Source: a virus
Taxonomy: Duplodnaviria; Caudoviricetes
Strand: one strand, 5' to 3'
Length of the DNA: 63,568 bases
Virus record (IMG/VR): IMGVR_UViG_3300034064_001787
Coordinates: 1-63,568 of that record
Below are positions 14,201-41,498 of the stretch, piece by piece (the stretch's first letter is position 1; every line of letters begins with the position of its first letter). The notes under the pieces were generated by a model. It had not been told where the DNA came from. It saw nothing but the letters and a program-made list of their open reading frames with translations, and made no database searches. Position numbers and translations under genes: made by a program.

Positions 14201-14221
14201 CCAAGCACCCCTCTTTTCCCC

Positions 14222-14416
14222 ATGAAAAAACTCATCGTCACCGCCACGCCAACCGGTAAAACCACCATCGAAGCCGAAGGCTTCCAAGGCCAAGGCTGCA
14301 CCCAGGCCAGCGACTTCCTCGTCCGCGCCCTCGGCACCATCGAGTCCCGCACCGACAAACCCGAGATGCACGAAATCGCCCCCGCGCTGGATCAAGGCCT
14401 CCACCTCAACGCATGA
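14222..14416 (+). CDS. DUF2997 protein
   Basis: G.TTIEAEGFQGQGC..AS..L..ALG pattern; adjacent to DUF1257. Confidence 0.8.
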   Translation: MKKLIVTATPTGKTTIEAEGFQGQGCTQASDFLVRALGTIESRTDKPEMHEIAPALDQGLHLNA

Positions 14417-14823: not shown

Positions 14824-15131
14824 AAAGCTCCGACTACCTCTTCCTCCCACCGTCCCATGAGACCTGGATCATGCACGTCCCCGTGATCAACACCTGCCAC
14901 ATTCAGCAAGAAGACGATGCCCGTCTGTCACAAGACGACATCGGCAACGGCCCCGTCATGGCCGACCTCAAACCCGGCTACCTGCTCTCGATCGACGATC
15001 TGGCCGACTTTGAAGGCTACTCCGACGCCTTCCTCCACCTCCTCGAAACCTTCCACAACCTCGGCTTCCACTACCTGCGCCTCGACCCCGATGGCAACGT
15101 CCTCGACGACCTGCCGCAGTTCGACTGGTGA
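14820..15131 (+). CDS. DUF5983-like protein
   Basis: C-terminal YLRLDPDG.VLDDLPQFDW. Confidence 0.6.
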   Translation: MKSSDYLFLPPSHETWIMHVPVINTCHIQQEDDARLSQDDIGNGPVMADLKPGYLLSIDDLADFEGYSDAFLHLLETFHNLGFHYLRLDPDGNVLDDLPQFDW

Positions 15132-15163
15132 TCCTCCTCGTCCTCCCACTCCTACTCAACCCG

Positions 15164-15186
15164 CCCGCTTCACGCGGGCTTTTTTA
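15164..15186 (+). terminator. Intrinsic terminator
   Basis: GCCCGC-TTCAC-GCGGGC-T6. Confidence 0.7.
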
Positions 15187-15212
15187 TACCCACCCTCCAC
15201 CCTCACACTCCT

Positions 15213-15641
15213 ATGGGCGACCGCTGCCACATGACCATCTACTGCCGTCCGCAAGACACGGCCCGCTTCGAAGAACTCGGCTTCACCGCGCAAATCCCTG
15301 AAACCGCCTTCAACGACGGCACCGTCGAAATGCTCGACGAAGAAGCCAACTACGCGCACCACGGGTCACTTCCCACCGACATCCCGTGGACCGGTTCCCA
15401 CCATGAAGGCGGCAACTACGGCCCCGCCGAGCTGCACTGCCCCGGCGAAGGCCGCATCTGGGAATGGGAAACCAACACCAACCACAGCGCCTACTGCTTC
15501 TCCCATCCCATCACCGATTCCCACGACTTCATCACCGAGATCCTCCAGTTCAACGCCTTCTACGAAGCCTACCTTCGAACCACCCACCTGCTATGCCCTC
15601 CCGCCCCCGATCCCGCGAGCAGCGCTACGAACGCTGCCTGA
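15213..15641 (+). CDS. Hypothetical protein
   Basis: 142-aa ORF. Confidence 0.7.
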   Translation: MGDRCHMTIYCRPQDTARFEELGFTAQIPETAFNDGTVEMLDEEANYAHHGSLPTDIPWTGSHHEGGNYGPAELHCPGEGRIWEWETNTNHSAYCFSHPITDSHDFITEILQFNAFYEAYLRTTHLLCPPAPDPASSATNAA

Positions 15642-15813
15642 AGACCGTCCACGCCGCCCTGTGCCAGCAAGCAGAAGATTTGGAAAGCATCGGTGCCACA
15701 CCATACAGCAACGACACCCTCGCCCTCATGAACCGCCTCTGCGCCCGCATCACCCGCACCCTCACCCCACGCCCCATCACCTCCAAGCAAATCCACCGCC
15801 TCCTCTCAAAACC

Positions 15814-16107
15814 ATGACTCTTTCCGATTTCCTTAATCTCCGAGGAGAGAACCACCAGTTCACAGAGGATGCTGAGCAAGCCTCCTTTCGAGCCCGTGGG
15901 TATCAAATCGGTTGGTATAGCACTCAAACCCTTGATGCCCTTCCATCCAAAGCCAAACCCGTCCGATTCAAAGAGATACCCCCGTGCCTCCGCTCCGGCT
16001 TCACCCCCAAAGACATCGTGAAAGCCTGGCGTTACCGCCGCGCCTGCGGCGAGCTCTCCCGCTACTACTTTCAAGACCGCGACGGCGATCTCCAGTCCGC
16101 CCAGTAA
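15814..16107 (+). CDS. Hypothetical protein
   Basis: ORF from ATG 15814. Confidence 0.55.
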   Translation: MTLSDFLNLRGENHQFTEDAEQASFRARGYQIGWYSTQTLDALPSKAKPVRFKEIPPCLRSGFTPKDIVKAWRYRRACGELSRYYFQDRDGDLQSAQ

Positions 16108-16144
16108 TTCCCCATTCATCCTTCATCCTTCATCCTTCATCATT

Positions 16145-17689
16145 ATGAACCTCAGCCTCCACATCCGCGCCGGTTACGCCGGCCTACTCATCACCACGCA
16201 CGAAGAATCCCGCGCGCTGGACACCTGCCGCAGCGTCGCCACCGAGCTGGACCGCCCGCTCCTCGCGTGGTCCTGCGCCACCGGCCTGTCCGATCTCAAC
16301 GCCACGCCCCAGTTCTCCAATCCCGGCCTCAAGACACCCATCCAGCTCTTCGAGGCGCTGGGAAACCTCCCCGCGCCCTGCCTGCTCGTCCTGTATGACC
16401 TGCCCATCTTCTTCTCGGCACCGAATCCGTCCCTCACCCGCACCTTCCGCCTCGCGCTGAACACCGCGAAGGCCAAGGGCATCACCCTGCTCGTCCTCAG
16501 CCCCGGCACACCCGCCCTGCCGCCAGACATCGCCAAACTCCTCACCCCACTGCCGCTCCCGCTGCCCACGCGGGAGGAACTGGCCGCCGTGATCGACCGC
16601 CTGTGCCACCACCCCAGCGAGTCCGGCGAGATGCACCGCCTGCGCGAGATCCCCACCGGGGATGAGTTGCAAGCCCTCACCGACGCCGCCAGCGGCCTCA
16701 CCGAAAACGAGGCGGAGGACGCCTACGCCCTCTCCCTCGTCCAACACGGACGCTTTGACCCGCCCACCGTCGAGGCGCAAAAAGCCGCCACCCTGGCCGC
16801 CAACGGCCTGCTGCACTACCTCAAACCCAAAGGCACCCTGGCCGACATCGGCGGCTGGGACGCTTACAAAGCGCACCTGCGCACCACCCGTGGCCAGTTC
16901 TCCCAGGCCGCCAAGGACTACGGCCTCGTGCCCACCAAAGGAGACCTCTTCGTCGGCAGCCCCGGCTGCGGCAAATCCCTCGCCGCCAGCATCCTCGGCG
17001 CGGAATTCAAGATCGCCACGCTGCGCTGCCGCCTGGACAGCCTGCGCGGCTCTCTCCTCGGCCAGACGGAGGCGAACTGGCGCAGCGTCGTGGAGACCGC
17101 CCGCACGCTGGCCCCGTGCATCCTCCACCTGGAGGAGCCGGACGGCCTGCTCTCTGGCCACGCCAGCAGCGGCAAGACGGACGGCGGCACCACCGCCACC
17201 CTCGTCAAAGCCATGCTGCAGGACATCGAAGCCAGCGACGGCATCTACTGGATCCTCACCACCAACGACATCGACTGCCTGCCGGATCCCCTCATCGACC
17301 GCCTCAACGTCTGGAACGTCGATCTCCCGAACGAAACTGAGCGCGGCGAAATCTGGCAGATCCAGATGCGCCACACCAAGCGCGATCCCCACACCGTGTG
17401 CCCCAAAGGCCTCGTCGGCATCGTCAAAGCCACGGACGGCTTCTCCGGCCGCCAGATCGAGCGCGTGTGGCACAAAGCCCTCTCCCTGGCCTTTGCCGAT
17501 GCCGCCCGCGAACCGCAGGAGAAGGACATCCTCTCCGCCCTCATCGGCGAGGTGCCCACCAGCAAGACCATGGCCGCCACCATCGAAGCCCGCCGCACCC
17601 GCCTCGAAGGCAAAGCCAAACCCGTCACCAGCCCCACCCTCGGCAAACTCATGACCGCCAAAGGCCGCAACGTCCAAGCCGCAGGGTGA
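16145..17689 (+). CDS. Ycf46-like AAA+ ATPase
   Basis: N-terminal T.EE.R motif, DIGG, Walker A GSPGCGKS, atypical Walker B LHLEE, GFSG..IE. Confidence 0.85.
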   Translation: MNLSLHIRAGYAGLLITTHEESRALDTCRSVATELDRPLLAWSCATGLSDLNATPQFSNPGLKTPIQLFEALGNLPAPCLLVLYDLPIFFSAPNPSLTRTFRLALNTAKAKGITLLVLSPGTPALPPDIAKLLTPLPLPLPTREELAAVIDRLCHHPSESGEMHRLREIPTGDELQALTDAASGLTENEAEDAYALSLVQHGRFDPPTVEAQKAATLAANGLLHYLKPKGTLADIGGWDAYKAHLRTTRGQFSQAAKDYGLVPTKGDLFVGSPGCGKSLAASILGAEFKIATLRCRLDSLRGSLLGQTEANWRSVVETARTLAPCILHLEEPDGLLSGHASSGKTDGGTTATLVKAMLQDIEASDGIYWILTTNDIDCLPDPLIDRLNVWNVDLPNETERGEIWQIQMRHTKRDPHTVCPKGLVGIVKATDGFSGRQIERVWHKALSLAFADAAREPQEKDILSALIGEVPTSKTMAATIEARRTRLEGKAKPVTSPTLGKLMTAKGRNVQAAG

Positions 17690-17760
17690 TCCTACCTCGC
17701 TGCGAGGGCAGGGGCTTTCCCTCTGCTTTCATCCTTCATCTTTTATCCTTCATCCTTTTC

Positions 17761-18057
17761 ATGAACGACCTCAACGACATCTCCCTCCTCATCCTGGCCG
17801 ATCTCGGCTGCCAACCGCGCCGCCTCAAAGCCCGCATTGATTCGCTCTGCCAGAGCCAACAGGGCGTCGGCCACACGCTGCCGCCCAAGCCCCTCCGCGC
17901 GCTGGAGCAGCGCGGCTGGCTCATCCTGCGCGGCGGCCACGAGAGAAAAGCCAACTACTCCATCGAAGTGACCGATGAAGGCCTGGCCGTCCACCGCTCC
18001 CTCATGCAACACCTCCGCGCCTTCCCCGTCGCCGCCCCAGCCGCCGTAGCCGCGTGA
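17761..18057 (+). CDS. Winged-helix protein
   Basis: LRALEQRGWL...Y.IEVTDEG pattern. Confidence 0.55.
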   Translation: MNDLNDISLLILADLGCQPRRLKARIDSLCQSQQGVGHTLPPKPLRALEQRGWLILRGGHERKANYSIEVTDEGLAVHRSLMQHLRAFPVAAPAAVAA

Positions 18058-18078
18058 TCGGACTTCCCTTGACTTCCC

Positions 18079-18978
18079 GTGATGAACACGCATCCTGATT
18101 TTGGCCACGTGCCAATGACCGCTGCGGCCTCGAAGGCTCTCGCCGCAGGAGGGGCAGCCCGTAAGGGCTGCCCCTCACCTTTTCACCGCGCCCTCCAAAA
18201 CCCGGACCTCTCCTACCACCACTGGTGGATACTCACCGCGCTGCGCGTCCGCACCGCCGCCACCGCCCTCAAACTGCAGGAGCAGGAAAAGCAAAAACTC
18301 CGCGCCGGATTCAAAACCAACGGCTACGGCGACCTCACCACCCTCACCTACGGCCACACCACGCAAGACCGCAGCGTCCAACGCTACGGCTTCACCGTCA
18401 CGAAACTGCACGGCTTCCGCAAATGGAAGAAGCGCTATTCGCCGGAGAAATCCACCCACTACGTCACCAGCCACCTCTTCGACGCCCTCCACGCCGTCCT
18501 CAAGATCACCACGCAGATCGAGAAGCAGGACACCCAGGAAAAAGCCGCCGCGAAGGCCGGGTTTGTCTCGGTGCAGGCGCACTGGCGCTGGCATCAGCGG
18601 CAGGAGCAGGAGAAAGACCGCGCCCGCGCCGATGGCTTCAACAGTGGCGTGCAAGACGAGCGCCGCCGCGCCGCCGAAGCCGACAAGCCCACCGGCTCTT
18701 ACAATGACCTCAACGACTACGGCATCGCCCCTGATCGCGATTGCATCATCGGCCCCACACTCGTGCTGGTGAACTACCAACGCACCCGCGAGCACCGCGT
18801 GAGCCTCATCGAATACCTCAATCTCAGACTCGGAAACATCCGGAAAAACGACTGGCGTGACGCCGGTTGGCGGCTTCCCGCCTACACCCCACCCAAACAA
18901 CCCCGTCCGATCAAACTACGCCTGCAAAGCCACGAACGCCACATTGACGGCATGCCGCCACTCCAACAAACTTCCTGA
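18079..18978 (+). CDS. Hypothetical protein
   Basis: 299-aa ORF. Confidence 0.65.
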   Translation: MMNTHPDFGHVPMTAAASKALAAGGAARKGCPSPFHRALQNPDLSYHHWWILTALRVRTAATALKLQEQEKQKLRAGFKTNGYGDLTTLTYGHTTQDRSVQRYGFTVTKLHGFRKWKKRYSPEKSTHYVTSHLFDALHAVLKITTQIEKQDTQEKAAAKAGFVSVQAHWRWHQRQEQEKDRARADGFNSGVQDERRRAAEADKPTGSYNDLNDYGIAPDRDCIIGPTLVLVNYQRTREHRVSLIEYLNLRLGNIRKNDWRDAGWRLPAYTPPKQPRPIKLRLQSHERHIDGMPPLQQTS

Positions 18979-18981
18979 CCC

Positions 18982-19314
18982 ATGCCACCTCTCGATCTCC
19001 AGCCTTACATTGACCACACCCTGCGCCAAGCCCGCCTTTTGAAACAACGGCACGGCCAGCCGGATGTTCTCACCCTCAGCCTCTACGCCACGGATGACGA
19101 CCTGCACCAACTCCGCCCGGAGGACGGGCCTGATGCCACCGTGAAAGTCCAGCACCGCATCACCCACGCCTGCGCCGACGCACTGCGCCGAGAGGGCTTC
19201 CCCGTGCGGCTCATCACCGTGCGCGCAACCGATTACCTCAAATGGCTCACTGAAAACGAACTCCCCAACCTCCCCGAAAACCGCGCCAAGTGGCTCACCT
19301 GGCAACAGCAGTAA
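18982..19314 (+). CDS. Hypothetical protein
   Basis: 110-aa ORF. Confidence 0.65.
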   Translation: MPPLDLQPYIDHTLRQARLLKQRHGQPDVLTLSLYATDDDLHQLRPEDGPDATVKVQHRITHACADALRREGFPVRLITVRATDYLKWLTENELPNLPENRAKWLTWQQQ

Positions 19315-19444
19315 CCTCTCCCAGTCTCCCCCTCTCCCCATCTCCTCCTCTTCTTTTCCTGCGGCCTGAGAGCCCGCAGGCATGGCAAGCAAGGCCCCCC
19401 CCACGAGCCCCTGTCCTCCACGCGAGGGCAGGGGCTTTTCTCTG

Positions 19445-19532
19445 CCTTCATCCTTCATCCTTCATCCTTCATCCTTCATCCTTCATCCTTCATCCTTCAT
19501 CCTTCATCCTTCATCCTTCATCCTTCATCCTT
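19445..19532 (+). repeat. Heptamer tandem repeat (CCTTCAT)12
   Basis: Read directly; shorter arrays occur before many early genes. Confidence 0.95.
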
Positions 19533-19537
19533 TCCTT

Positions 19538-19816
19538 ATGCAAGACCTCCTCCCCCTCAAACGCCACGCCGAAGCGCACGGCCTCACCCTCAACCTGTTC
19601 TCCGTCCTTCTGGCCGTGCAAAAGCAATCCCGCACGCACACCGAGATCGCCAAACTGCTCGGCAACTCCACCGCCGCCGTCACCGGCCTGATCGACCGCC
19701 TCGCCGCCGCCGAGTGCGTCTCCTCCCTCCCCAGCGACGGCGACCGCCGCTGCAAATACGTCACCCTCACCGAGCGCGGCCAGACCATCCTGGCCACCGC
19801 GCCGAAGGCCGCGTGA
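19538..19816 (+). CDS. MarR-family winged-helix regulator
   Basis: TEIAKLLG.STAAVTGLIDRL...DRR...VTLTERG. Confidence 0.85.
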   Translation: MQDLLPLKRHAEAHGLTLNLFSVLLAVQKQSRTHTEIAKLLGNSTAAVTGLIDRLAAAECVSSLPSDGDRRCKYVTLTERGQTILATAPKAA

Positions 19817-19903
19817 TCCCCACTTGAAACTTGAAACCTGAAACCCTTTCCGGCCCCCGCCGAAACCAAGAACAACGAACCAAGAACAACGAACCCACCG
19901 CCC

Positions 19904-21106
19904 ATGAAAAAAAACCGCCCCACCCCCGCCGCCGAAACCGACGCCTCCTCCCCCTCCATCCTCACGCTGGACACCCTGCGTGAGATGGCGGAGGCGCAGC
20001 GCGTCGATCTCTACGTCACCACCGAAAACCGCCAGCGCCTCGGCTTCCTACTGCAAGGCAAGATCCTCCACACCCTCGGCATCGAGGGCACGGAGCTCCT
20101 TCGCGCCGCCGGCATCAAGCCCTCCTCCCTCTGCAATGCCCGCAAGGCCGAGTGGGTGCTCCGCGCCTTCACCGAGCCGGACACCGACACCCTGCGCAAC
20201 GCCCGCTTCCACGTCCCCGGCGAGGAAGAGCCCGTCGCGTTCAGTGAGGCACTCTACAACACCCTGACGCTGCGCCAGTGCGAGCTGCTGCAGATCGGCT
20301 TCACCACCATGGGCACCTTCCGCCACCGCCCCACCAGCCGCGAGATGAGTGAGATGCTCACCAAACCGGACTGGGACGAGCATGTGGAGTGCTTCCTCGA
20401 CTACGGCACCGACCTCGACGGCAAAGCCGAGCGCGAGGCCGCCTCCGCCCGCGCCCTGGAGGAGGAACGCCTCCGCCGCGAGGACATGGCACGCCAGATC
20501 GAAGAACTCCAGGCCCGCAACGCCGTCCTGGAAAGCTCCGAGCCGCCACCCCCACCCGTGGTCAACACCGCGCCGACTCCCGGCGAAGCCGAAACCGACG
20601 CCGCCCCCAACAACGTCGTCGCCTTCCCCACCAGTCAATCCAGTCAATCCAGTCAATCCAGTCAATCCAGTCCCACCGCTGAAGACACCGAAACCACCCC
20701 CGAAGCTGAAGTCGCCAACGAACCCGAAGCCACCCCAGAACCCGAACCCGAGACCGAAGACGCCGAAACCGTCGAAATCCCGCCGGCAGACCCCGATGCC
20801 GTCACCCACGAGGAGATCGCCTCCGCCGTGGCCGATGCCACCGAGGGCATGGAGAACTACACCGAAGACGGCCCCACCGTCCTCGCCTCCTGCCTCGACG
20901 AGATGGAAGCCGTCCTCAACGACGGCGCGGTGCATCAGTGCAGCGTGGAGACCCTCACCAGCCTCCTTGTCCGCCTTGACGACATCACCGCCGCTCTGCG
21001 CACCGCCCTCACCGCCAAAGCCGCCCCGCAGGACGACCTGCCCGTCCAGCAGCCCAAGGCCAAAGGCGGCAAACGCAGCAAAAAAACCGACCTCGCCGCC
21101 GCGTAA
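19904..21106 (+). CDS. Hypothetical protein with acidic, low-complexity C-terminal half
   Basis: 400 aa; contains an in-frame CAGTCAATC x4 repeat (SQS). Confidence 0.8.
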   Translation: MKKNRPTPAAETDASSPSILTLDTLREMAEAQRVDLYVTTENRQRLGFLLQGKILHTLGIEGTELLRAAGIKPSSLCNARKAEWVLRAFTEPDTDTLRNARFHVPGEEEPVAFSEALYNTLTLRQCELLQIGFTTMGTFRHRPTSREMSEMLTKPDWDEHVECFLDYGTDLDGKAEREAASARALEEERLRREDMARQIEELQARNAVLESSEPPPPPVVNTAPTPGEAETDAAPNNVVAFPTSQSSQSSQSSQSSPTAEDTETTPEAEVANEPEATPEPEPETEDAETVEIPPADPDAVTHEEIASAVADATEGMENYTEDGPTVLASCLDEMEAVLNDGAVHQCSVETLTSLLVRLDDITAALRTALTAKAAPQDDLPVQQPKAKGGKRSKKTDLAAA

Positions 21107-21184
21107 CCCGCGCAGATGACAGCCCACGTCCAGTGCCGGCCTGAGAAACCGGCACTCTGATACGAGGCACTTCAATGGTTGAGG

Positions 21185-21222
21185 CACCCGGCTCCCGTCA
21201 CACGGAGCCGGGTGTTTTTTTT
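21185..21222 (+). terminator. Intrinsic terminator
   Basis: CACCCGGCTCC-loop-GGAGCCGGGTG-T8. Confidence 0.85.
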
Positions 21223-21261
21223 GCGCTGGCCTCTATTCCAAACCAGCTACTTTCACCCACC

Positions 21262-21687
21262 ATGAACCTCCCCGCCTGCCACATCCCCACCCATCTCCGC
21301 AAAGCCCTGGCACTCGACTACATTCTTTACCCCTACGAGCTGCATGGCTCCCTCGTGTTTGATGATCCCGCGTTTGATCTTGTGGCCGAGGAGCTGGTCT
21401 GTGGGGCCGATACCTTTGTGCGCTATTGCTCACAGCACATCACGCATCCCGCCGTGCATGTCTCCAACACCCACCGCCCTGCCTCCAACTGCCTTCACTT
21501 CCTGCGCATGGAGAACAACGGTTATCACACTTACACCACCGACATCCCGGAGGTGCCACAAATGCAACTGTGCCCGAACTTCCGCTTGTATTATCCCGAT
21601 CCGCCCGCGCACCTGTGGATCAACGTCGCGGAAGTCTCACCATCGGAACAGCACCTTTATACATGGCCTCAGCCTGTTTTGTCGTGA
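21262..21687 (+). CDS. DUF6717-like protein
   Basis: VFDDP...E.LV.GAD...LCP...YY..PP..LW pattern. Confidence 0.6.
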   Translation: MNLPACHIPTHLRKALALDYILYPYELHGSLVFDDPAFDLVAEELVCGADTFVRYCSQHITHPAVHVSNTHRPASNCLHFLRMENNGYHTYTTDIPEVPQMQLCPNFRLYYPDPPAHLWINVAEVSPSEQHLYTWPQPVLS

Positions 21688-22975
21688 TGCCATTCCTTCG
21701 TTGCACCCGCTCAATTTCTTTTGCTTTACGATCCACAAACCCCATGCCTGCGTAATGCCTGGCCAGTTTTTCCGAAGGAACAGACGCATGCCCATACGCA
21801 TTCGCCGTGGTCTTAATGAGGCGGTTGCGTTTGTCCGCGTTCTGCAACAACGGCGTCGCCACCGCTTTCAACGCCCTACCCGAACGAATCATGGAACCTC
21901 CTTGCGGAGCAGACATGACATCCACTTCCCGCAAGCGCCGCCCGCTCCGAATATAATCAAGATGCACATCCGTCGCGGGATTGAACTTCCGTTTGGCTGC
22001 ATCCGCCGCCGTTTGCGGCATCTCCGCCTCATTCACTGGACGAAACAGCCTCACCGGCCTGTCTTTGCCAGACCCATGCTTATTCCAACCACGCGACCCA
22101 CCTCGGAGAGGCGGGCGCTCCACCAAATATCCTGACTTCAACAACGCAAACTCCAACAATCGATCCACCCGATGCAATACCGTCAAAAATTCCCCTGGCG
22201 CGAAGTGCTGCTTGCTTGCGGCATCATCCTTCTGCCTCTCACCTGCGCCAAACTTGCTCGCCGCGGCGCGGAGCGGCTTGAGTCCGTGATATACCGCGTT
22301 TTGGGTCTGTGACAGCATGGGTGATCCCAGCAAATCCGTCACTGCCCGTGATACTCCACTTGCTTTTTTACCCTTCAACCCCGCCATGCCCGCTTTACGA
22401 ACCAAAGCATCTCCCCACGGATGCTTCGCAAGCAAGGCCCGCCCTCCGTTGATCAATGGCATCACGGGCTCCACCAAAGCGGCACCTACTCCAGTCGCCG
22501 CCGCTGCCGACCGGCCTAGCCATTTGCTTTTCGGTGTTGCCGCCTCCTTGGAGGACACCCTCGGCAGTTTTTTCATTAAAGCATCCATGTGCTTGCTGCG
22601 CGGCCCCGCGATGATGCGGGAAACCTGACCCGCCTCGTCATTCCCTGGCATCTTTGCACGCGCTGAGGCGATCAAACGCTGCACCCGCGTGCTTTCACCT
22701 CCTGCCTTGTAAAGGTGGCTGTATTCCGGCCCCAACAGCACATCCGCGCTGCGCTGCAGCATCGGATGCAGCACCTTGCCCTGCTTGGCGTCACGATGTC
22801 CCGCTTGTGCGATGGATGCCAGCACACGCTGCCCGCGTTTGGATTTCAGCAACCCTTTCGTTAGCAGATTCTGGCCGACATGAATCGCCGCACCCATGCC
22901 CAATGTCCCCAGCAAACTGAATTGCCTCAATGAAGCGTCCATCTGGCGGTTCAAACGTGTCAATTCAAGCAACAT
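21620..22975 (-). CDS. Antisense late 'moron': modular protein with conserved N-terminal leader, Gly-rich helices and C-terminal GNAT-like domain
   Basis: MLLELTRLNRQMDASLRQF leader; TTGAT-N14-ATG; L..AD....I...A....L..HY.GMGF resembles a GNAT C-terminus. Confidence 0.75.
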   Translation of the reverse strand: MLLELTRLNRQMDASLRQFSLLGTLGMGAAIHVGQNLLTKGLLKSKRGQRVLASIAQAGHRDAKQGKVLHPMLQRSADVLLGPEYSHLYKAGGESTRVQRLIASARAKMPGNDEAGQVSRIIAGPRSKHMDALMKKLPRVSSKEAATPKSKWLGRSAAAATGVGAALVEPVMPLINGGRALLAKHPWGDALVRKAGMAGLKGKKASGVSRAVTDLLGSPMLSQTQNAVYHGLKPLRAAASKFGAGERQKDDAASKQHFAPGEFLTVLHRVDRLLEFALLKSGYLVERPPLRGGSRGWNKHGSGKDRPVRLFRPVNEAEMPQTAADAAKRKFNPATDVHLDYIRSGRRLREVDVMSAPQGGSMIRSGRALKAVATPLLQNADKRNRLIKTTANAYGHASVPSEKLARHYAGMGFVDRKAKEIERVQRRNGITTKQAEAMYKGAVPMVRLPRR

Positions 22976-23050
22976 CCCTCTCTCCTCATATCAACCACCC
23001 CAAACCCGCCTGATCCCCACTTCATCCTTCCTCCTTCCTCCTTCATCCTT

Positions 23051-24262
23051 ATGAAACTCCCCCACACCCTCCTCCGCCGCCTCACCGCCATCCTCGCCTG
23101 CCTGAACCGCAAGCCCTCGCTCCGCATCCTCGGCCACCTCTATTTCACGCCCGTCGGCCCAAACACCCTCATCACCGCGTCTGATCTGGAGCTCCACCTC
23201 CACTGGCCGCTGCCCACCGTCACCTTCGGCTCCCTAGACCAGCCTGCCTCCTGCCCGCTCGACTGGTTCCTCAAGCTCGCCAAGGCCGTGCGCAAAGACG
23301 GGCACCTAGAACTCCGCCTCACCGAAGACGGCCGCACCCTCTGCGCCTATCCCAGCACCGGCCCCAGCGCCCGCAGCCCGGAGCGCAGCCTCCCCATCGC
23401 TGACATGCCACTCTTCAGCACCGCCTCCCACCGCCGAGGCGGCTGGCTTTCCCACGAGACCCTGCAGCACCTGACCGCCGCCAAGGACTTCATCTCCACC
23501 GATGAAACCCGCTACGTCCTGCAAGGTTCCTTCATCAGCGCCACCGGCCACTGCGTGGCCACCGATGGCCGCCGCCTCTGCCACCGCGCCACCGCCGGCA
23601 CCCGCCTGCCAGACGACATCATCGTGCCGGCCAAGTGGTTCCCCGCGCTGCTCGAACTCAGCGACGGACTGCTCCTCGAAAACGGCAGCGGGCGATTCTG
23701 GAAGGGCGAAGTCGGTGGCACCCGCCTCCCCATCTGGCTCAACGGCGGGCACAACCCTGAAACGGACGTGACTCACGCCACCGACTGGATGCTCGTGCAG
23801 TCCGGCGACTGCCTGCTCAACTGCCGTCTCATCGACGGCAACTACCCCAACTGGCGGCAGGTCATTCCCAGCAGCTTCAACGCCCTGGCCGATCTCAACG
23901 ACGACTTCCTCGACACCCTGCGCACCACCCTGGCGCGCAGCCCGAAGCGCAAAGAAACCCGCGTCACCTTCCACCTCGACCCGGACGGCCACCTCCGCGC
24001 GGACATTTACACCAGCAGCGGTCAAAGCCGCACCGATCTCGTCGATGCCCACTTCCTGGCTGGCAAACACGTCATCGACCTGCGCCAGCAGCACTTCAGC
24101 ATCACGTTTGACGCCAACCTGCTCCTCTCCGCCCTCACCACCACCGGTCCCCGCCTCCGCTTCACCAACGACATCAGCCCCATCCTCATCGGCGACCCCG
24201 TCCAAGGCGAAGCCGTCCTCATGCCCATGCGTAATGCAACCCCCGCCACCGCGAAGGCGTGA
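23051..24262 (+). CDS. dnaN: DNA polymerase III beta-clamp-like protein
   Basis: ASDLE, STDETRYVLQG, ATDGRRL, LIDGNYPNWRQVIP and VLMPMR motifs. Confidence 0.85.
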   Translation: MKLPHTLLRRLTAILACLNRKPSLRILGHLYFTPVGPNTLITASDLELHLHWPLPTVTFGSLDQPASCPLDWFLKLAKAVRKDGHLELRLTEDGRTLCAYPSTGPSARSPERSLPIADMPLFSTASHRRGGWLSHETLQHLTAAKDFISTDETRYVLQGSFISATGHCVATDGRRLCHRATAGTRLPDDIIVPAKWFPALLELSDGLLLENGSGRFWKGEVGGTRLPIWLNGGHNPETDVTHATDWMLVQSGDCLLNCRLIDGNYPNWRQVIPSSFNALADLNDDFLDTLRTTLARSPKRKETRVTFHLDPDGHLRADIYTSSGQSRTDLVDAHFLAGKHVIDLRQQHFSITFDANLLLSALTTTGPRLRFTNDISPILIGDPVQGEAVLMPMRNATPATAKA

Positions 24263-24372
24263 GCCTGCAACAATCGTATTCCTCATTCCTCATTCCTCAT
24301 TCATCATTCCTCATTCCCACCGGCTGACACCCCACGCTCTCCGAGTCTCCTCTTCTCCAAGTCTCCCAGTCC

Positions 24373-24624
24373 ATGCCTTCCCTCGTCAAACCGCCCCGCG
24401 AACTCCTCTTCCACACCTACCTCGGCGTCGAAATCTACCTCTTCGATGCCACTCACGGCCACCGCCGTGAAGGCTGGAACCACCACCAGGACCCATACTG
24501 CCTCGTCCAGCTCGATCCCGTCCTCCCTCACAAAGACTTCGGCCTAGTCGGCGACGACCTCGACACCCTCCTCCTCGAAACCAAACACGTCATCGACCGC
24601 CGCAAGAAGGTGAAGCTGAATTGA
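24373..24624 (+). CDS. Hypothetical protein
   Basis: 83-aa ORF. Confidence 0.65.
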   Translation: MPSLVKPPRELLFHTYLGVEIYLFDATHGHRREGWNHHQDPYCLVQLDPVLPHKDFGLVGDDLDTLLLETKHVIDRRKKVKLN

Positions 24625-24629
24625 AGGGG

Positions 24630-24719
24630 AACAAAAAGGATCAGGCACAAAATGGGCGGACTTGATGCCGCCTCGTCTAGTGCCTCTCCGCCCATTTTGT
24701 TGCTCTGCATCCGCTGGTT
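24630..24719 (-). mobile_element. attC-like recombination site (array 1)
   Basis: AAC-6nt-GATCAGGCACAAAATGGGCGGA...TCCGCCCATTTTGT(T)GC(T)CTG(C)ATC-5nt-GTT; long inverted repeat with extrahelical bases. Confidence 0.8.
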
Positions 24720-24767
24720 CTCATTCCGTTCCCCTCGACTGCCGCAATAGATTCTTTGAATTGTGTA

Positions 24768-24796
24768 TTGACACAATTATCGGCCTATGCAATACT
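24768..24796 (+). promoter_or_regulatory. sigma70 promoter with overlapping operator
   Basis: TTGACA-N17-AATACT; inverted repeat AATTGTGT/ACACAATT at 24759-24778. Confidence 0.65.
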
Positions 24797-24861
24797 GCTC
24801 TCGTTCCAAAAAGGAACAACGTCCCGGCGTCTCCGGCTCAACTCAGCAAAGAATACAAGCC

Positions 24862-25479
24862 ATGAAACTCAGCATCCGCAATATCACCGCCTCAATCTCC
24901 AGCATGATTGAGGAATACGCCCAAGAATCCGACTCAATCGCCAGCGGAGTCGTTGGACCGTCCTTTTCCTGCTCTGGCCCTGGTTCAGGATGGCAGAAAA
25001 ACCATGATGTCACCGATTACGCCGAGCGGGCACTCTCAGACGATTACGGTGCCAGCAGCTACATCGACAGCGAGGATGGCCGCGAGGCCACGCTAGAAGA
25101 CGGCGAAGTGGTATGGTCTGAGGAATCTGTCGTCGAGATCGAGCTGCCGACTGTCGAGCAAGCTCTCGAAGACATGGAGACTTGGAAGATCATCAAAAGG
25201 GAGGCCGCGAACTACGGCGTCGATCAAAGCGAGATCGACGAACTGGCTGAAACAATTGAAGAGTGCCGGGAGATTATCGCTGAAATCACAACGGCCAAAA
25301 AAGCCGCTGGAGAAGACGCCTATCTCTGGCTGCATGACTCAGGAGATTGCATCCTCTGGGAGTCTGAAGAAGACAGCGAAAACGACAACGGTAGTCGCGC
25401 CATTGAGCGCTGGTCGCTAAGCAAAGCGCAGCGCGATGCACTGATCGAAACCACCAGCCTCGTCGATTGCAACGCCTAA
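24862..25479 (+). CDS. Highly acidic hypothetical protein (cassette gene)
   Basis: D/E-rich 205 aa; inside an attC-bounded cassette. Confidence 0.75.
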   Translation: MKLSIRNITASISSMIEEYAQESDSIASGVVGPSFSCSGPGSGWQKNHDVTDYAERALSDDYGASSYIDSEDGREATLEDGEVVWSEESVVEIELPTVEQALEDMETWKIIKREAANYGVDQSEIDELAETIEECREIIAEITTAKKAAGEDAYLWLHDSGDCILWESEEDSENDNGSRAIERWSLSKAQRDALIETTSLVDCNA

Positions 25480-25482
25480 CCC

Positions 25483-25923
25483 ATGACACTCCACCACTAC
25501 ACCGTCCAAACCGGCCACCTCACCCTGCAAACGCGGGGTGAGGTGGATCAAAAAGCGCTCGATCTCCTCGCGCCCATGATCAAGCCTGGCACGCACGCAC
25601 TGCCCGGAACAACGATCAAGCTCGACATACCGGCGGGCAACATGGGGCAGACCTCTGGCGTTGGCTCATTCCGCCTCCTCGCCGCCGATGGCGAGCCTGT
25701 GGCGCTCGCCATGCTGGCCTGGAGAGCCAGTGCAGAGGCAGGTGTCATCTGGGGCACATGTCTGCCGAATACACCCCTGCCAGACGCTCCGGCTGGCTAC
25801 CCATGGCTCGCCATCGTCCTCATGCCAGCCATCGCCACACTCAGCCGCGACGATACGCTCATGCTCGGAGACATCGAGAGATGTGTCGCATGGTCAATCA
25901 TCACCCAACAGCCAGCCGGATGA
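25483..25923 (+). CDS. Hypothetical protein (cassette gene)
   Basis: 146-aa ORF. Confidence 0.7.
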   Translation: MTLHHYTVQTGHLTLQTRGEVDQKALDLLAPMIKPGTHALPGTTIKLDIPAGNMGQTSGVGSFRLLAADGEPVALAMLAWRASAEAGVIWGTCLPNTPLPDAPAGYPWLAIVLMPAIATLSRDDTLMLGDIERCVAWSIITQQPAG

Positions 25924-26120
25924 AAAACGATCTCACACCCACACGCGGAGCGCCCCCCAAACGGGGCGCTACCGCCTCCGCCATCATCAACGTCCGGGTG
26001 GACGCTGATCGCAAAAACCACTACACGCGCTTCGCGAAAAAGCGCCGTGATGGAGACAAGACCCTCGCTGGCCTCGTGATCGAAACACTCGACGCGGCGA
26101 CTGGCTACCGTGAGGAATGA
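25920..26120 (+). CDS. Ribbon-helix-helix-like regulator (cassette gene)
   Basis: RGAPPK...INVRVD..RK..Y...A......LAGLVIETLD. Confidence 0.65.
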   Translation: MKNDLTPTRGAPPKRGATASAIINVRVDADRKNHYTRFAKKRRDGDKTLAGLVIETLDAATGYREE

Positions 26121-26121
26121 G

Positions 26122-26206
26122 AACGATTAAAATCAGGCGACGGCGAGCGCAAAAGATCGAAACCACGATAGACGCCCTATGAGCCGTTCCTCTCCATCCA
26201 ATTGTT
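26122..26206 (-). mobile_element. attC-like site with imperfect or hybrid arms (array 1)
   Basis: AAC at 26122 and GTT at 26204, ACGGC/GCCGT core; flanks complement the cassette ends. Confidence 0.6.
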
Positions 26207-26388
26207 CGTCTTCCGTTCCGTGGTGGGCATGGGTGTTCATTGCGCCCGCCGCCATCATACTCTCGCCAATCGGCACCTGTATCCTAACGGAATGGCTGCA
26301 TTTAGACTTTATAGGATGCTGCAAGCTCATTGCTGGACAGGTCATCGTGTTTCTCAGTTTAGCGATCTTCGCAGGAGGTGAAGATTGA
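26179..26388 (+). CDS. Small 2-TM membrane protein (cassette gene)
   Basis: Hydrophobic ORF; start codon inside the attC-like site. Confidence 0.6.
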   Translation: MSRSSPSNCSSSVPWWAWVFIAPAAIILSPIGTCILTEWLHLDFIGCCKLIAGQVIVFLSLAIFAGGED

Positions 26389-26483
26389 AGACGAACGACA
26401 AGGATCACGCGACCGATTACACCGCCCTGCGCAAAGCCGCCTTCCCGTAGCGACTCTCCCCGTCTCAAAACCTCATACTCCCC

Positions 26484-26507
26484 AAGCCCGCCCCGCGCGG
26501 GCTTTTT
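26484..26507 (+). terminator. Intrinsic terminator
   Basis: AAGCCCGC-CCCGC-GCGGGC-T5. Confidence 0.6.
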
Positions 26508-26513
26508 CATGCC

Positions 26514-28346
26514 ATGAAACTCGTCCAACAACTCCAAGCCGCCGGTCAGGACCACGAATTCTACCCGACCACAAACGAAATCCTTCACGCTCTCTTCACG
26601 CACCTTTGCCGGGGTGATGAGGAAGCCGAATCTCCCCAAAAACAGCGCTTCCACGGCACCGTCATGGACATCGGCGCTGGCAATGGCAAAGTCCTCGCCG
26701 AGTTTGCCAAACGCGGCGCGGACACACTCTACGCCATCGAGAAAAGCCCGCTCCTGCAGCGGGAGCTGCCACCGCAAGTGCTCGTCATCGGCACCGACTT
26801 TGCGGAGCAGTCCCTTTTCACCAAACCGGTCGATCTCCTCTTCTGCAACCCGCCCTACTCGCAGTTCATCTGCTGGATGGTCAAGATCATCCGCACTGCC
26901 GCGGCCAAGGAACTCTACCTCGTCGTCCCCCGCCGCTGGCAGGACAATCCTGACGTCATCGCCGCGCTACGCTTCCGTGGCGTGCTCCTACCCCACGAAA
27001 AAGATCCCAAAGAACCACCGCCAAAGCCTACCCACCTCGTCACCGACCACCCTGAAAACCAAGCCTGGGATGCGCAATGGGGGCCAATCCGAAGCAGCAG
27101 CGGCCAGATCATCAGGTGCCGCTACTACACCCCTCACATTCGCGTCACCATCGTCGGCGAGTTCGACTTCGAAGATGCCGAAGACCGCAAGGCGCGCGCC
27201 AAGGTCCACCTCTTGCACATCCCGCTCGAAACCTCCGGCAAGCACCAGGAAAACGACGATGCCTTCGAACGCTTCTTCCAGGAGCAGTTCGCCGATCTCA
27301 TCGCCCGCTTCCAAGGTCAGAAGGAGAAACCCTCCGCCTATGAGCAGCCCCCGCCACCGCCGGATCGCTTCCCGCTCGTCACCGCAGAGAGCTACATCGA
27401 AGCCCTCGTCCAGTGCTACCACGCCGAGCTGGCGAACATCGAGAAGAACTACAACGCCGTGGCCACGCTCGATGCGGATCTGCTCCGCGAGTTCGAGGTC
27501 TATCCCGCGAAAATCATGGCCTGCCTCAAGCAGCGCCTCAGCGGCCTCCGCCACGACTACTGGCACGAGCTCTTTGACCGCATGGACAAGCTCACCTCCC
27601 GCCTCACCACCGCCAGCCGGGAATCCATGCTCGGCACCCTGCGCCGGCACGTCCAGGTCGATTTCACCGTCTCCAACATCCACGCCATCGTCCTCTGGGC
27701 GCTGAAGAACGTCAATCGCTACATCGACGCGCAGTTCATCGACACCTACGAAACCATGGTGGAGCACTGCAACATCCAGAACTACCACAGCAACCAGCGC
27801 ACCTGGCAGAAGGGTGACTGGCGCTACAACCACGCCCGCGGCCGCAACGAATGGGCGCACGACAACACCCACTTCAAGCTGGATTACCGCATCGTTTTGC
27901 AAGGCGTCGGCGGCATCGCCACCTACGAATACGACTTCCAAAAAGAAGCGCACAATTACCTCAAAGAGAAGTGCTACCACTTACTCCGCGATCTCCTCAC
28001 CATCGCCAACAATCTCGGCTTTTTCTGCTCGGTCAATCCCTACCAACTCGTCGGCAGATGCCACTCCTGGCAGAGCAACCAACGCGAGGAATTCTACTGG
28101 ACCCCAGAACCCGGCAAACAAGAGATTCTCTTCGACGCCCGCGCCTTCAAAAACGGCAATCTCCATCTCCGCCTCCACCCGCGCTTCATCCTGGCCCTCA
28201 ACGTCGAGCACGGCCGCCTCAAAGGCTGGCTCAAGGATCAGCACGATGCCGTCACCGAACTCGGCGACATGGAAGCCGCCCACTTCTGGAAAGCCAATCT
28301 TCACCTCCCCATGCCCACCAACCCCGCCCTGCTCCTCGCCGCATGA
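26514..28346 (+). CDS. Amino-DNA methyltransferase with DUF4942-like C-terminus
   Basis: EFYPT, DIGAGNG (motif I), NPPY (motif IV), FKNGNLH. Confidence 0.85.
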   Translation: MKLVQQLQAAGQDHEFYPTTNEILHALFTHLCRGDEEAESPQKQRFHGTVMDIGAGNGKVLAEFAKRGADTLYAIEKSPLLQRELPPQVLVIGTDFAEQSLFTKPVDLLFCNPPYSQFICWMVKIIRTAAAKELYLVVPRRWQDNPDVIAALRFRGVLLPHEKDPKEPPPKPTHLVTDHPENQAWDAQWGPIRSSSGQIIRCRYYTPHIRVTIVGEFDFEDAEDRKARAKVHLLHIPLETSGKHQENDDAFERFFQEQFADLIARFQGQKEKPSAYEQPPPPPDRFPLVTAESYIEALVQCYHAELANIEKNYNAVATLDADLLREFEVYPAKIMACLKQRLSGLRHDYWHELFDRMDKLTSRLTTASRESMLGTLRRHVQVDFTVSNIHAIVLWALKNVNRYIDAQFIDTYETMVEHCNIQNYHSNQRTWQKGDWRYNHARGRNEWAHDNTHFKLDYRIVLQGVGGIATYEYDFQKEAHNYLKEKCYHLLRDLLTIANNLGFFCSVNPYQLVGRCHSWQSNQREEFYWTPEPGKQEILFDARAFKNGNLHLRLHPRFILALNVEHGRLKGWLKDQHDAVTELGDMEAAHFWKANLHLPMPTNPALLLAA

Positions 28347-34694: not shown

Positions 34695-34966
34695 GCCCTG
34701 AACTCTCCACCGCCATCGCCTGCGCCACCGCCGTGAGAGGCCAACTCCAAAGCGACATCGCAACAACCTTCACACCCGACAAAGCAGCGTTGAGCAAAGC
34801 CATCGACCAATTCCTCACCCAAGCCTTCAGCGGCAGATTCGCAGATCGTGAAGCCCAACAAAACAGCGCAGCACCCCTCAAAAATCGCAGCGGACACAGC
34901 AGTGAGTGCCCTAAAGCCCCGCATTCACATGCTCCCGCACCGGAGCATAGCCCACGTAATTCTTGA
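34691..34966 (+). CDS. Hypothetical protein
   Basis: ATGA-coupled ORF, convergent with the integrase. Confidence 0.45.
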   Translation: MSPELSTAIACATAVRGQLQSDIATTFTPDKAALSKAIDQFLTQAFSGRFADREAQQNSAAPLKNRSGHSSECPKAPHSHAPAPEHSPRNS

Positions 34967-35996
34967 ACGTCACCTCGATCCCATCGCCCAGCCACTGCGC
35001 CACCGTCGCGATCGGGCACCCACCCATCACCAGCAAAGTCGCAAACGTATGACGCATCGAATGCCACCCCACCCACGGCAGCCCAGCCGCCACCACCAGC
35101 CGCTTCAATGGCTTCCGTGGTTCCCAGCGATACTTATGCTTTGCATGCCCCACATCAGGTCGCACCACGAACGGCCCATCAAACCGCTGGCCATGCAGGA
35201 ACTCATACAGCCGGTCATTCATCGGGATCCGACGAGCCTCCTTATCCTTCGGCACAAAAGTCGAAGTCTCCATCACACACACCTCACCACCACCCGGCCA
35301 GAAGCGCAGCCACTCCGGCCTCATCTCGATCATCTCATGCAGCCGCAGCCCCGCATGAAAGCCCAACATCAGCATCAGCCTCAAATCCTCCCGATCACAC
35401 AGATCGATCAGCCGCTCACGCTCCTCACGCGTGCAGAAACGATCCGCCCGCGTCTTCCGCACCACCGGCACCTTCACCTCATCCGCCACATTCCTCGGCA
35501 GCACCCCACGCTCCACCAACCAGGCCAGGAAAGCATGCAGCCGCAGCAGGTAAGTCTTCACCGTCGCCACCGCCTTCCCAGCCTCACGCAGCCCCTTCAG
35601 CCAACCCTCCACACGCCTTGCCGTGATCAGCGCCACCGGCGTCTCCACCCCCAGGAACACACCAAACAACTTCAAAGCCGACGCATCCGAATCCAGCGTC
35701 CATCGGCTCATCACCCGCTCACGCCGCACCTCCAAAAAACGCTCCCTCTCGAAAGCAAACGTCCCCGGCGTAAACTCCACTGGACGATCCCGATGCAGAT
35801 CCAGCGCCAGCTTCACCGCCTCATCGTAAGAGCGAGTCCCCAGCGCCACCCTCGGCGGCCGACGCCCCTCCCGTTGAGCCGGCCTAAAATACCACCAGCC
35901 CCCGATCTCCGTCAGTCCCTTGATCTTCACGCGACCCCTCAGCGCCCCTCTCGGAGCCTTTTTTTGACCACTTTGGTTGACCACTTTGGAGCGCAT
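34911..35996 (-). CDS. int: Tyrosine integrase
   Basis: GLRLHE (R), PKDK (K), HSMRHTF (HxxR), WLG and catalytic Y; adjacent to attP. Confidence 0.92.
   Translation of the reverse strand: MRSKVVNQSGQKKAPRGALRGRVKIKGLTEIGGWWYFRPAQREGRRPPRVALGTRSYDEAVKLALDLHRDRPVEFTPGTFAFERERFLEVRRERVMSRWTLDSDASALKLFGVFLGVETPVALITARRVEGWLKGLREAGKAVATVKTYLLRLHAFLAWLVERGVLPRNVADEVKVPVVRKTRADRFCTREERERLIDLCDREDLRLMLMLGFHAGLRLHEMIEMRPEWLRFWPGGGEVCVMETSTFVPKDKEARRIPMNDRLYEFLHGQRFDGPFVVRPDVGHAKHKYRWEPRKPLKRLVVAAGLPWVGWHSMRHTFATLLVMGGCPIATVAQWLGDGIEVTFKNYVGYAPVREHVNAGL
35964..35987 (+). repeat. Integrase arm-type direct repeats TTGACCACTTT x2
   Basis: The same pair recurs at 36139-36161 on the other side of the core. 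Confidence 0.7.
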
Positions 35997-36052
35997 AACG
36001 TGTGTTATATGGTCAAAAAGAGGGACTTTACAAGCCCCATCCCTGTGACCGA

Positions 36053-36101
36053 TGGTGGAGATAAGGGGATTCGAACCCCTGACCTTCTCATTGCGAATGA
36101 G
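36053..36101 (-). mobile_element. attP core, the 3' half of tRNA-Ala(CGC)
   Basis: Minus strand CTCATTCGCAATGAGAAGGTCAGGGGTTCGAATCCCCTTATCTCCACCA (anticodon arm, T arm, CCA); 5' half absent. Confidence 0.88.
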
Positions 36102-36104
36102 CAG

Positions 36105-36120
36105 CGTTCCACATGGAACA
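36105..36120. promoter_or_regulatory. parS-like site
   Basis: CGTTCCACATGGAACA compared with consensus TGTT(T/C)CACGTG(A/G)AACA. Confidence 0.5.
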
Positions 36121-36138
36121 CCTCTTAGTGTCACGAAT

Positions 36139-36161
36139 TTGACCACTTTCGTTGACCACTT
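36139..36161 (+). repeat. Integrase arm-type direct repeats TTGACCACTT x2
   Basis: Matches 35964-35987. Confidence 0.7.
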
Positions 36162-40680: not shown

Positions 40681-40748
40681 GGAGCGCCGCAACGTCCCTG
40701 CTCTGGCACAGAGCGTGGGAGAGAAAACTAAACCGAAGGAAAAGGCCA

Positions 40749-41497: not shown

Positions 41498-41498
41498 T

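Follow-up and report, generated by a model that had tools for sequence, protein, structure and literature searches.

The window analysed here, that is the whole stretch of 63,568 bp, is a complete virus record (IMGVR_UViG_3300034064_001787) with direct terminal repeats (DTR) and belongs to a temperate phage from lake water, whose genome encodes a portal, a large terminase (TerL) and a primase along with a DnaN-like clamp and a methyltransferase (MTase) with DUF4942. Between a small gene of 83 amino acids (p83) and the MTase-like gene lies array 1 (24623-26415), which consists of two attC sites (A and B), a half-site (C) and two cassettes (c_A and c_B), and a further array (array 2) lies downstream (Table 1). 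attC sites are recombined by the integron integrase (IntI) as folded single-stranded DNA, with the bottom strand preferred, and take the form of an imperfect hairpin of ~57-141 nt with unpaired spacers by the R box, extrahelical bases in one arm, a variable loop and the outer-repeat consensus RYYYAAC / GTTRRRY. Where at least two of them cluster with no integrase nearby, the arrangement is termed a CALIN. We consider it highly probable that 24623-26415 is such a short, integrase-less cassette array (CALIN) in a complete temperate phage, for which the integron integrase would be supplied in trans.

The outer arms of array 1 define its units. The strings GTTCTCATTCC at 24717 and GGAATGAGAAC at 26114, and likewise GTTCGTCTTC at 26204 and GAAGACGAAC at 26387, stand at exactly these coordinates, and repeat finding returned the same outer-arm pairs as the inverted repeats I11 (11 nt) and I17 (10 nt), both at 100% identity. 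These are the ends that the initial annotation had given to a 1.4-kb unit with a perfect 11-bp end complement and to a following unit running from 26204 to 26387-26396, and both units held up, as did the full site placed at 24630-24719 with three extrahelical bases: DNA folding turned 24623-24727 into a single long hairpin (-23.8 kcal/mol) whose right arm holds all three of the single-base bulges, and a perfect 14-bp stem was found by repeat finding at 24647-24660 with 24687-24700. Direct-repeat families join the left arms at 24620, 26112 and 26384 and the right arms at 24699 and 26186. The left-arm motif GAACnnnnAnrATCAsGC has exact copies only at 24629, 26121, 26393 and 41434, all of them predicted sites (at up to two mismatches its 8 matches are not above chance); shuffles predict 0 copies of the right-arm motif, which is present at 24708 and 26195 and nowhere else. 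The copies at 26393 and 41434 also bear out the likeness drawn earlier between a truncated left arm and the site at 41435, as half-site C resembles the left half of site D.

We then compared the seven right arms with the eight left arms of both arrays, scoring the longest outward complement, and all seven right arms paired best with the left arm of the next site downstream. The complementary runs at the seven junctions measured 11, 10, 8, 9, 6, 12 and 8 nt against 3-6 nt in unrelated pairings, and higher off-diagonal values (8 and 6) were seen only between the two units, X and X', of a duplication in array 2. Such pairing of an arm with the next one is the signature of integron cassettes, with the crossover inside the R box, and at all 7 junctions the first bases of the cassette complement the R'' of its own attC. 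Sites A, E, D, G and H have interiors of 73-127 nt, spacers of 5-7 and 4-5 nt and 14-23 stem pairs, with bulges lying wholly or mostly in the right arm of the + strand. All six full sites carry the AAC and GTT triplets. Further candidates from the hairpin scan (31625, 50241, 55340 and 58216) were set aside as chance because their geometry differs and they have no covariance-model support, and GTTCCCCTTC at 42576, which complements the left arm of A, is probably chance too since it lies 14 codons inside a gene. Two full sites and a half-site within 1.8 kb (array 1) and four full sites within 1.1 kb (array 2) make both arrays clusters of the CALIN kind; the nearest recombinase is 5-8.5 kb off and is not IntI, and no intI with an attI adjoining an array was found in the phage. 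As the phage is without IntI, the arrays are filed as CALIN-type and not as an integron.

Candidate hosts were indicated by the element at 36053-36125, which ARAGORN calls as tRNA-Ala(CGC) and which more closely resembles an attP core than a functional tRNA gene. By eye, it is like a bacterial tRNA only in its 3' part (T arm and acceptor end), and its 5' acceptor strand is seemingly unpaired with the 3' acceptor end. The 3' 32 nt of this element are present in many phyla, and the longest matches to its end (49-53 nt at 98%) are all in Verrucomicrobiota, in records titled Prosthecobacter, Brevifollis, Verrucomicrobiaceae and Chthoniobacteraceae. IntI scored above the cut-off of the integron-integrase model TIGR02249 in three of the five genomes matching the tRNA end, a fourth carried a broken IntI, and 46 of 121 sampled genomes from the family of one such genome had IntI above the cut-off. 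The host arrays beside intI follow the same junction rule and carry the same L boxes as the phage sites, of the type GGATCAGGCGAC...GCCTGCATCC as in A, C and D and of the type CATCCACGGCG...CGCCGTTGGATG as in G and H; the L boxes of A (GGATCAGGC / CTGCATCC) are the bottom strand of host type-1 attC. The outer four R-box bases are off RYYY/RRRY in most phage sites, whereas the host sites conform (GCCTAAC / GTTAGGC); for the right repeat of attC, Qi et al. (2023; PMC9892861) give the consensus G|TTRRRY. From the attP match and the distribution of the attC families, Verrucomicrobiaceae-like bacteria are the likely hosts, and the phage sites are by all these sequence features homologous to the attC of their chromosomal integrons. 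BLAST of 24600-26520 against 145 genomes of the host family gave matches in 99, every match listed falling on site B and often several per genome at cassette-like spacing. The cargo DNA of array 1 had no BLAST match in these 145 genomes, the protein of the gene at 41871 was found in none of them at E 1e-8, and the array proteins had no match in the host loci compared.

A covariance model (CM), R1, was built from 19 host attC sites next to intI, with no phage sequence included. MAFFT alignments of the phage sites had mis-registered the arms and the first host alignment yielded no sensible structure in RNAalifold, so the consensus structure was taken from the individual folds of the 19 host sites. 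The whole window was scanned on both strands with filters off, the short calibration leaving the E-values rough, and the top six of 13 matches were exactly the six full phage sites: B at 26119-26210 (minus, 49.3 bits, E 1.4e-10), H at 42161-42248 (minus, 41.5 bits, E 1.5e-8), A on the + strand (17.1 bits, E 0.036) and, again on the minus strand, D (E 0.044), G (E 0.046) and E (E 0.062), the next match having E 0.17. The minus strand thus holds five of the six. A 55-kb contig with a related prophage (G006:C74), scanned as a control, gave nothing better than E 0.48, and among four viral loci of ~73 kb (L002-L005) only L005 had matches. Rfam at gathering thresholds gave 0 matches in the window; we know of no attC family in Rfam. 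The CM scan, which the initial annotation had named as a check, answers in favour of its claim of a second, separate attC array with the same polarity as array 2. After the right arms of A (24728-24734) and B (26215-26219) stands a second GTTCC, inside a common CCGTTCC; in A the GTTCCCC is a perfect complement of its own GGGGAAC and was used by the CM. These extra copies may be left over from an earlier junction or may be chance.

In host arrays the top strand leads away from intI, carries the genes and has the extra bases on the AAC side. The phage sites match this host top strand through the window minus strand, both by the CM strands and by alignment with host sites (global alignment scores on the minus versus the other strand were 95 vs 52 for B, 85 vs 54 for H and 72 vs 64.5 for D); A and E were ambiguous on this score, and A was assigned by its L boxes, by a bulged C that precedes ATCC and by which side carries the bulges. 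As the attC top strand is the window minus strand, the crossover is predicted, from the homology with host sites, at AA|C in the left arm and not at the right-hand GTT, a correction to the initial annotation, which begins its units at the right arms. Its unit lengths agree with the 1492 bp and 272 bp found here, with the boundaries shifted to AA|C. By the same alignments the window + strand is the predicted attC bottom, recombinogenic strand.

All nine array ORFs (open reading frames) are on this + strand, opposite to the genes of host cassettes, and as they are read from the attC bottom strand each attC precedes its gene. Start codons lie inside attC at 26179 (loop of B), 41183 (E), 41499 (D) and 42203 (H, behind AAGGAG), and in every ORF of array 2 the left-arm AAC is translated as Asn, the stop codon following 6-60 nt inside the next site. 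Array 2 also holds a 222-nt duplication (X at 40944-41165 and X' at 41550-41771, 97.7% identity) which ends exactly at an AAC; its five differences are all third-codon and synonymous on the + strand, and all five are non-synonymous in the minus-strand ORF. We took an orientation census with the longest ORF per inter-attC interval, the ends being R1 hits and a few hand-set half-sites, and the longest ORF fell on the top strand for 32 of the 38 host intervals, whereas 15 of the 21 viral intervals had it on the bottom strand (Fisher p 3.6e-5), though the census is crude and short intervals are noisy in GC-rich DNA. With 56.4% and 54.6% GC the arrays are less GC-rich than the genome (62.2%). Array 2 opens with a fusion gene, joined within the truncated attC of half-site F (a right-half site): its leader and first ~14 codons (40697-40789; protein MNKNQL...) are 83% identical to a cassette gene of the viral contig L208 (6402-6494), and its last 79 aa (amino acids) duplicate unit X'. 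C and F could be the two parts of a single attC divided by the intervening 14.5-kb segment, a possibility given low weight because F is better explained by a deletion fusing the 'MNK...' cassette ORF to unit X.

Cassette c_A differs in carrying a promoter-like site of its own, overlapped by a palindrome (AATTGTGT at 24759-24766 and ACACAATT at 24771-24778), and by these signals it looks self-expressed. The protein of its second gene (25483) has 12 homologue clusters at 49-93% identity, and that of the third gave one long helix in a single-sequence fold (pLDDT 73), an uninformative result. Save for one weak PHROG match the cargo proteins of the arrays had no match in Pfam or PHROG, nothing in the ESM Atlas and nothing credible in a PDB sequence search.

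Table 1. Coordinates of the arrays, their cassettes and genes, and neighbouring features in the window.
Feature	Position	Strand	Length	Description
attC site A	24623-24727	minus		arms, hairpin, L boxes and CM match
Site A left arm	24623-24632			GAAGGGGAAC; crossover AA|C predicted between 24631 and 24632
Site A hairpin	24638-24712			three bulges, right arm
Site A right arm	24717-24727			GTTCTCATTCC
Cassette c_A	24632-26123		1492 bp	attC A, own promoter and three + strand genes; bounds by the AA|C rule
c_A promoter-like site	24759-24796	+		TTGACA at 24768, 17-nt spacer, AATACT with TG, 10/12 matches
c_A gene 1	24862-25479	+	205 aa	acidic; no family
c_A gene 2	25483-25923	+	146 aa	weak phrog_28365 match alone
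c_A gene 3	25920-26120	+	66 aa	basic; stop codon within site B left arm
attC site B	26114-26214	minus		best CM match; stem degenerate
Site B left arm	26114-26124			GGAATGAGAAC; crossover predicted between 26123 and 26124
Site B right arm	26204-26214			GTTCGTCTTCC
Cassette c_B	26124-26395		272 bp	attC B and hydrophobic 69-aa ORF
c_B ORF	26179-26388	+	69 aa	hydrophobic; start in attC loop
Half-site C	26387-26415	minus		GAAGACGAAC and GACAAGGATCACGCGACC; L'-R' half of type-1 attC (top-strand terms), no right arm after
Array 2	40944-42442	minus		half-site F, full sites E, D, G, H, terminal left arm I
Half-site F	40944-40966			array 2
Site E	41156-41260			array 2
Site D	41427-41574			array 2
Site G	41762-41856			array 2
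Site H	42154-42253			array 2
Terminal left arm I	42433-42442			array 2
Array 2 ORF 1	40749-41186	+		
Array 2 ORF 2	41183-41497	+		
Array 2 ORF 3	41499-41783	+		
Array 2 ORF 4	41871-42206	+	111 aa	
Array 2 ORF 5	42203-42448	+		
p83 gene	24373-24624	+	83 aa	flanks array 1; no Pfam/PHROG match; stop 5 nt before the GAAC of site A
MTase-like gene	26514-28346	+		flanks array 1; DNA methyltransferase-like; DUF4942 and weak MTase domains
Tyrosine recombinase	34911-36146	minus		sole one in the phage; beside tRNA-like attP; not an integron integrase

The movement of single units was traced in other viral contigs. The protein of the gene at 41871 has 107 homologues, of which 27 were aligned, and in 17 of these 27 the residues S-E/Q-N, which the left-arm R box GATTCAGAGAAC encodes, are retained and unrelated tails of 1-20 residues follow; on this alignment the family diverges exactly at the predicted crossover. 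The cassette c_G (41772-42167) is 92.9% identical over 397 nt to the viral contig L207, the identity beginning directly behind the AAC of site G and ending at that of site H. At 1796-2198, L207 holds a solo cassette, an attC and a 41871-like gene ending in GAGAAC, followed by sequence unlike attC, as would be left by insertion at a secondary site. In L208 the same 41871-type gene and R boxes stand behind a different attC interior. Cassette c_B (26145-26411) is 85.8% identical over 267 nt to L216 (3928-4194), where it is flanked by a shortened B-like site and, after it, by a complete attC (32 bits). L206 (9242-10626) matches the interior of c_A (24740-26108) at 80.5% identity and keeps the promoter, the operator-like palindrome and the three genes (78, 92 and 92% aa identity). 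Of these three cassettes c_G and c_B, and not c_A, were found as discrete mobile units, and no other gene is common to the phage and L206, L207 or L216. The same cassettes, with AAC borders, stand in unrelated phages. The proposal of the initial annotation that capture recurs in this phage holds in part: the relatives of the individual cassettes lie in viral contigs that differ from cassette to cassette and are otherwise unrelated, a pattern that fits repeated exchange and not one pickup, while capture within this phage lineage, rather than the inheritance of ready-made arrays, may be presumed.

At least five viral contigs that are not otherwise related have the reversed layout, with attC first. 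In L005 three attC matches stand on the strand opposite the genes, among them one for a DPPY methyltransferase with its start inside an attC loop, and L209 and L216 have the same reversed attC/gene layout. The contig behind L208, G148 (IMGVR_UViG_3300013800_000011; 56.8 kb, 92% complete by CheckV), encodes an IntI of its own (280.5 bits against the cut-off of 265) and has, in the 14000-28000 portion of its contig C1 (L217), 11 attC matches whose strand leads away from intI, the array genes facing towards it; IntI and sites form a complete integron. That G148 is wholly viral rests on the IMG/VR classification. Its array includes a homologue of the 41871 gene and a Dam-like gene. In L004, a contig related to the phage only via its MTase (33%), two short hairpin sites with a 47-48 nt interior occur at 1683-2309; the first right arm, GTTATACG, complements the next left arm, and R1 did not call these sites.

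Close relatives of the phage were sought in several ways. Megablast of 20-32 kb against phage records gave no match, the DnaN-like query gave a single IMG/VR match at 24% identity and 45 matches in metagenomes, nearly all at 22-34%, the primase query found no relative, and three relatives of the MTase (33-41% identity) had no further gene in common with the phage. The distantly related prophage G006:C74 (loci L203-L205), in a genome of the family Verrucomicrobiaceae, shares TerL (56% aa identity), the integrase (47%), a helicase-like gene (47%) and the DnaN-like gene (31%); it has the helicase-like gene between TerL and the integrase, a differing gene order. It was rejected as an empty-site reference, being too diverged and having no attC match. 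In other lake-water runs, similarity to site A and the end of c_A gives way at 24629, 24719 and 26126, which are R boxes, a hint that comes from short, low-depth contigs. In the source run the depth is even at 35-36 across p83, c_A and the MTase side, Logan contigs break at 24278-24316 and 26088-26117, and in an independent run a contig extends from p83 into site A with no differences.

Several results weigh against reading array 1 as a working CALIN. The phage encodes no IntI (TIGR02249, whole genome), and with no close relative found no empty site can be demonstrated. The scores of sites A, D, G and E stay at 16-17 bits, their E-values being rough; the match of A to R1 is on the + strand and uses an alternative R box (GGGGAAC with GTTCCCC at 24728), and sequence by itself leaves the polarity of A and E ambiguous. 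The genes run opposite to those of a canonical cassette, and no promoterless ORF was found upstream of attC on its top strand. In L206 the c_A cargo stands without flanking attC sites, and when contigs of four lake-water runs were laid on 23900-26900 none joined across a cassette, although their cover is patchy outside the source run and contigs drop rare variants, so that they are uninformative on excision. Site B folds weakly (-8.7 kcal/mol), and with C and F being half-sites, parts of the arrays are in decay.

Decay and the missing IntI would also suit fossil arrays, true attC homologues acquired once, en bloc or long ago, and no longer recombined, with the junction rule merely inherited. 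The degenerate stem of B, the truncation of C and F, the first gene of array 2 fused by deletion into an attC, ORFs that are translationally coupled across cassette borders and the lack of cassette joints in contigs all lean that way. We nevertheless regard fossil arrays as unlikely, since the nearest relatives of the cassettes lie in different unrelated viral contigs at 86-93% nt identity with AAC borders, R-box complementarity is perfect over 8-12 bp at six of the seven junctions, the 222-nt duplicate has stayed at 97.7% and ends exactly at AAC, and IntI is common in the candidate host family. That the Xer-like recombinase of the phage itself acts on the hairpins, as XerCD does on the folded attP of filamentous phages, is far less probable still. 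It is the only recombinase in the phage and its best NCBIfam models are Xer-type, including XerA 'recombinase/integron integrase' at 53.9 bits, but all scores are far under the family cut-offs (34 bits against 265 for TIGR02249) and it looks like a generic Xer-type or lysogeny integrase; it adjoins the tRNA-like attP as a lysogeny integrase does, a 47%-identical homologue sits in the prophage G006:C74 without detectable attC, and the sites are homologous to those served by bona fide IntI in hosts. Least credible of all are ordinary intergenic hairpins, either terminators or PeSL-type regulatory stem-loops, or an assembly chimera with host DNA. Hairpins between genes and the breaks of the source-run Logan contigs would suit these explanations; yet the homology with host attC takes in the loops, the junction rule holds, the even depth and the independent-run contig from p83 into site A speak against a chimera, and the 6 terminator-like sites found (2.2 expected) include none at R boxes.

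Around array 1 a few further elements were seen. A terminator-like hairpin lies at ~26484-26508, upstream of the MTase-like gene. Between the DnaN-like gene and the p83 gene a tandem heptamer run of ATTCCTC / ATTCATC (~5-6 copies, 24278-24318) is complementary to TGAGGAATGAG, part of the left arm of site B (inverted repeats I9 and I10). Logan contigs of several runs end at this heptamer run with many different loose ends, so that it is a repeat common to several organisms. A C-rich 24-nt element, AGTCTCCTCTTCTCCAAGTCTCCC, has identical copies at 24344-24367 and 42505-42528, where 0 were expected by chance, and a third copy with 3 mismatches at 4729-4752 on the minus strand; it stands 5-7 nt upstream of the start codons of the p83 gene, which borders array 1, and of the helicase-like gene, which borders array 2.

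For the CALIN reading the following course may be proposed. An IntI supplied in trans, whether from the host (IntI being common among the candidate hosts) or from a co-resident phage, would fold the window + strand (the attC bottom strand) and cut the left arm at 5'-AA|C-3', leading to exchange, excision or insertion of whole units. Each unit of an attC and its downstream gene or genes could be exchanged between phage genomes, and perhaps with host arrays, which would diversify the accessory genes of the early region. Because the start codon is carried in the unit's own attC, a unit would be translatable wherever it lands, with a C-terminal tail that varies with the neighbour. IntI is SOS-induced in known systems, and were this so here its activity would coincide with prophage induction. 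IntI presumably acts on these copies even now, the candidates being those of the host and of a co-resident phage.

As phage arrays have been published, the kind is already known. In a survey of 10,705 phage genomes from NCBI, Qi, Rajabal, Ghaly, Tetu and Gillings (2023, Front Microbiol; PMC9892861) reported phage attC clusters and complete integrons, including 17 phage CALINs, and found that IntI1 recombined five of six phage sites tested. Those CALINs are like the present arrays in having at least two attC with cassettes and no IntI, with a host integrase presumed in trans, and in that methyltransferases are common cargo or neighbours; here, unlike in that survey, the sites are tied to a specific host attC family and the borders come from comparison, from sequence alone (PMC9892861). 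The main text of the survey does not use the word Verrucomicrobia and discusses no genes on the attC bottom strand (PMC9892861). A literature search, with subscription journals outside its coverage, likewise found no phage arrays with genes on the attC bottom strand and no integron elements in phages of Verrucomicrobia. The reversed architecture, common to other viral contigs including one with its own IntI, appears to be unreported.

The closest cellular counterparts are the sedentary chromosomal integrons of Verrucomicrobiaceae-like genomes (G003:C1, G054:C1, G004:C127 and others), which have the same attC types and junction rule and the same geometry of the hairpin in its R boxes, 4-5 nt spacers and bulged bases, but lie beside intI and have the longest ORF mostly on the attC top strand. 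Sedentary chromosomal integrons as a general kind were reportedly described by Cury et al. in Nucleic Acids Research (NAR) in 2016. Reverse-oriented cassettes exist in bacterial superintegrons, for example toxin-antitoxin cassettes with own promoters, where the gene is antisense to attC as in c_A with its promoter-like site; there they are a minority scattered among forward ones, whereas in the phage whole arrays are reversed, mostly promoterless and with starts in attC. The PeSL 'mobile regulatory cassettes' that Arbiol et al. are said to have described in T4-type phages in 2010 reportedly resemble the arrays in that stem-loops flank small accessory genes in plastic phage regions, but are said to be promoter and stem-loop repeats moved by homologous recombination, with no AAC/GTT R boxes, attC homology or link to IntI.

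It is mainly as gene-capture platforms of bacteria that integrons are known, and attC clusters in phages were first reported in 2023, from cultured-phage genomes (PMC9892861). The present analysis links phage attC sites to a defined host attC family, establishes cassette borders by comparison and shows single cassettes moving between unrelated phages. The pair of c_A and L206 is a natural gene module with and without attC, and bears on the origin of cassettes. We suggest tentatively, as a possibility that we would hesitate to favour, that phages of freshwater Verrucomicrobia-like hosts keep an 'attC-first' cassette pool of their own, in which the upstream attC gives the ribosome site and start and the frame crosses the AAC, integron recombination serving as phage-to-phage exchange of accessory genes. 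On this proposal the recombinogenic strand would be the sense strand, and it would be the lagging-strand template if replication and transcription are co-directional. If the reversed layout is a general phage adaptation, such phages would shuffle the genes of their early region by means of integron machinery, either that of the host or one of their own. Host integrons stockpile anti-phage defences by the same machinery, according to preprints of 2024-25, and if the proposal is true the accessory genes exchanged among the phages may possibly be anti-defence genes, mirroring the anti-phage cassettes of host integrons.

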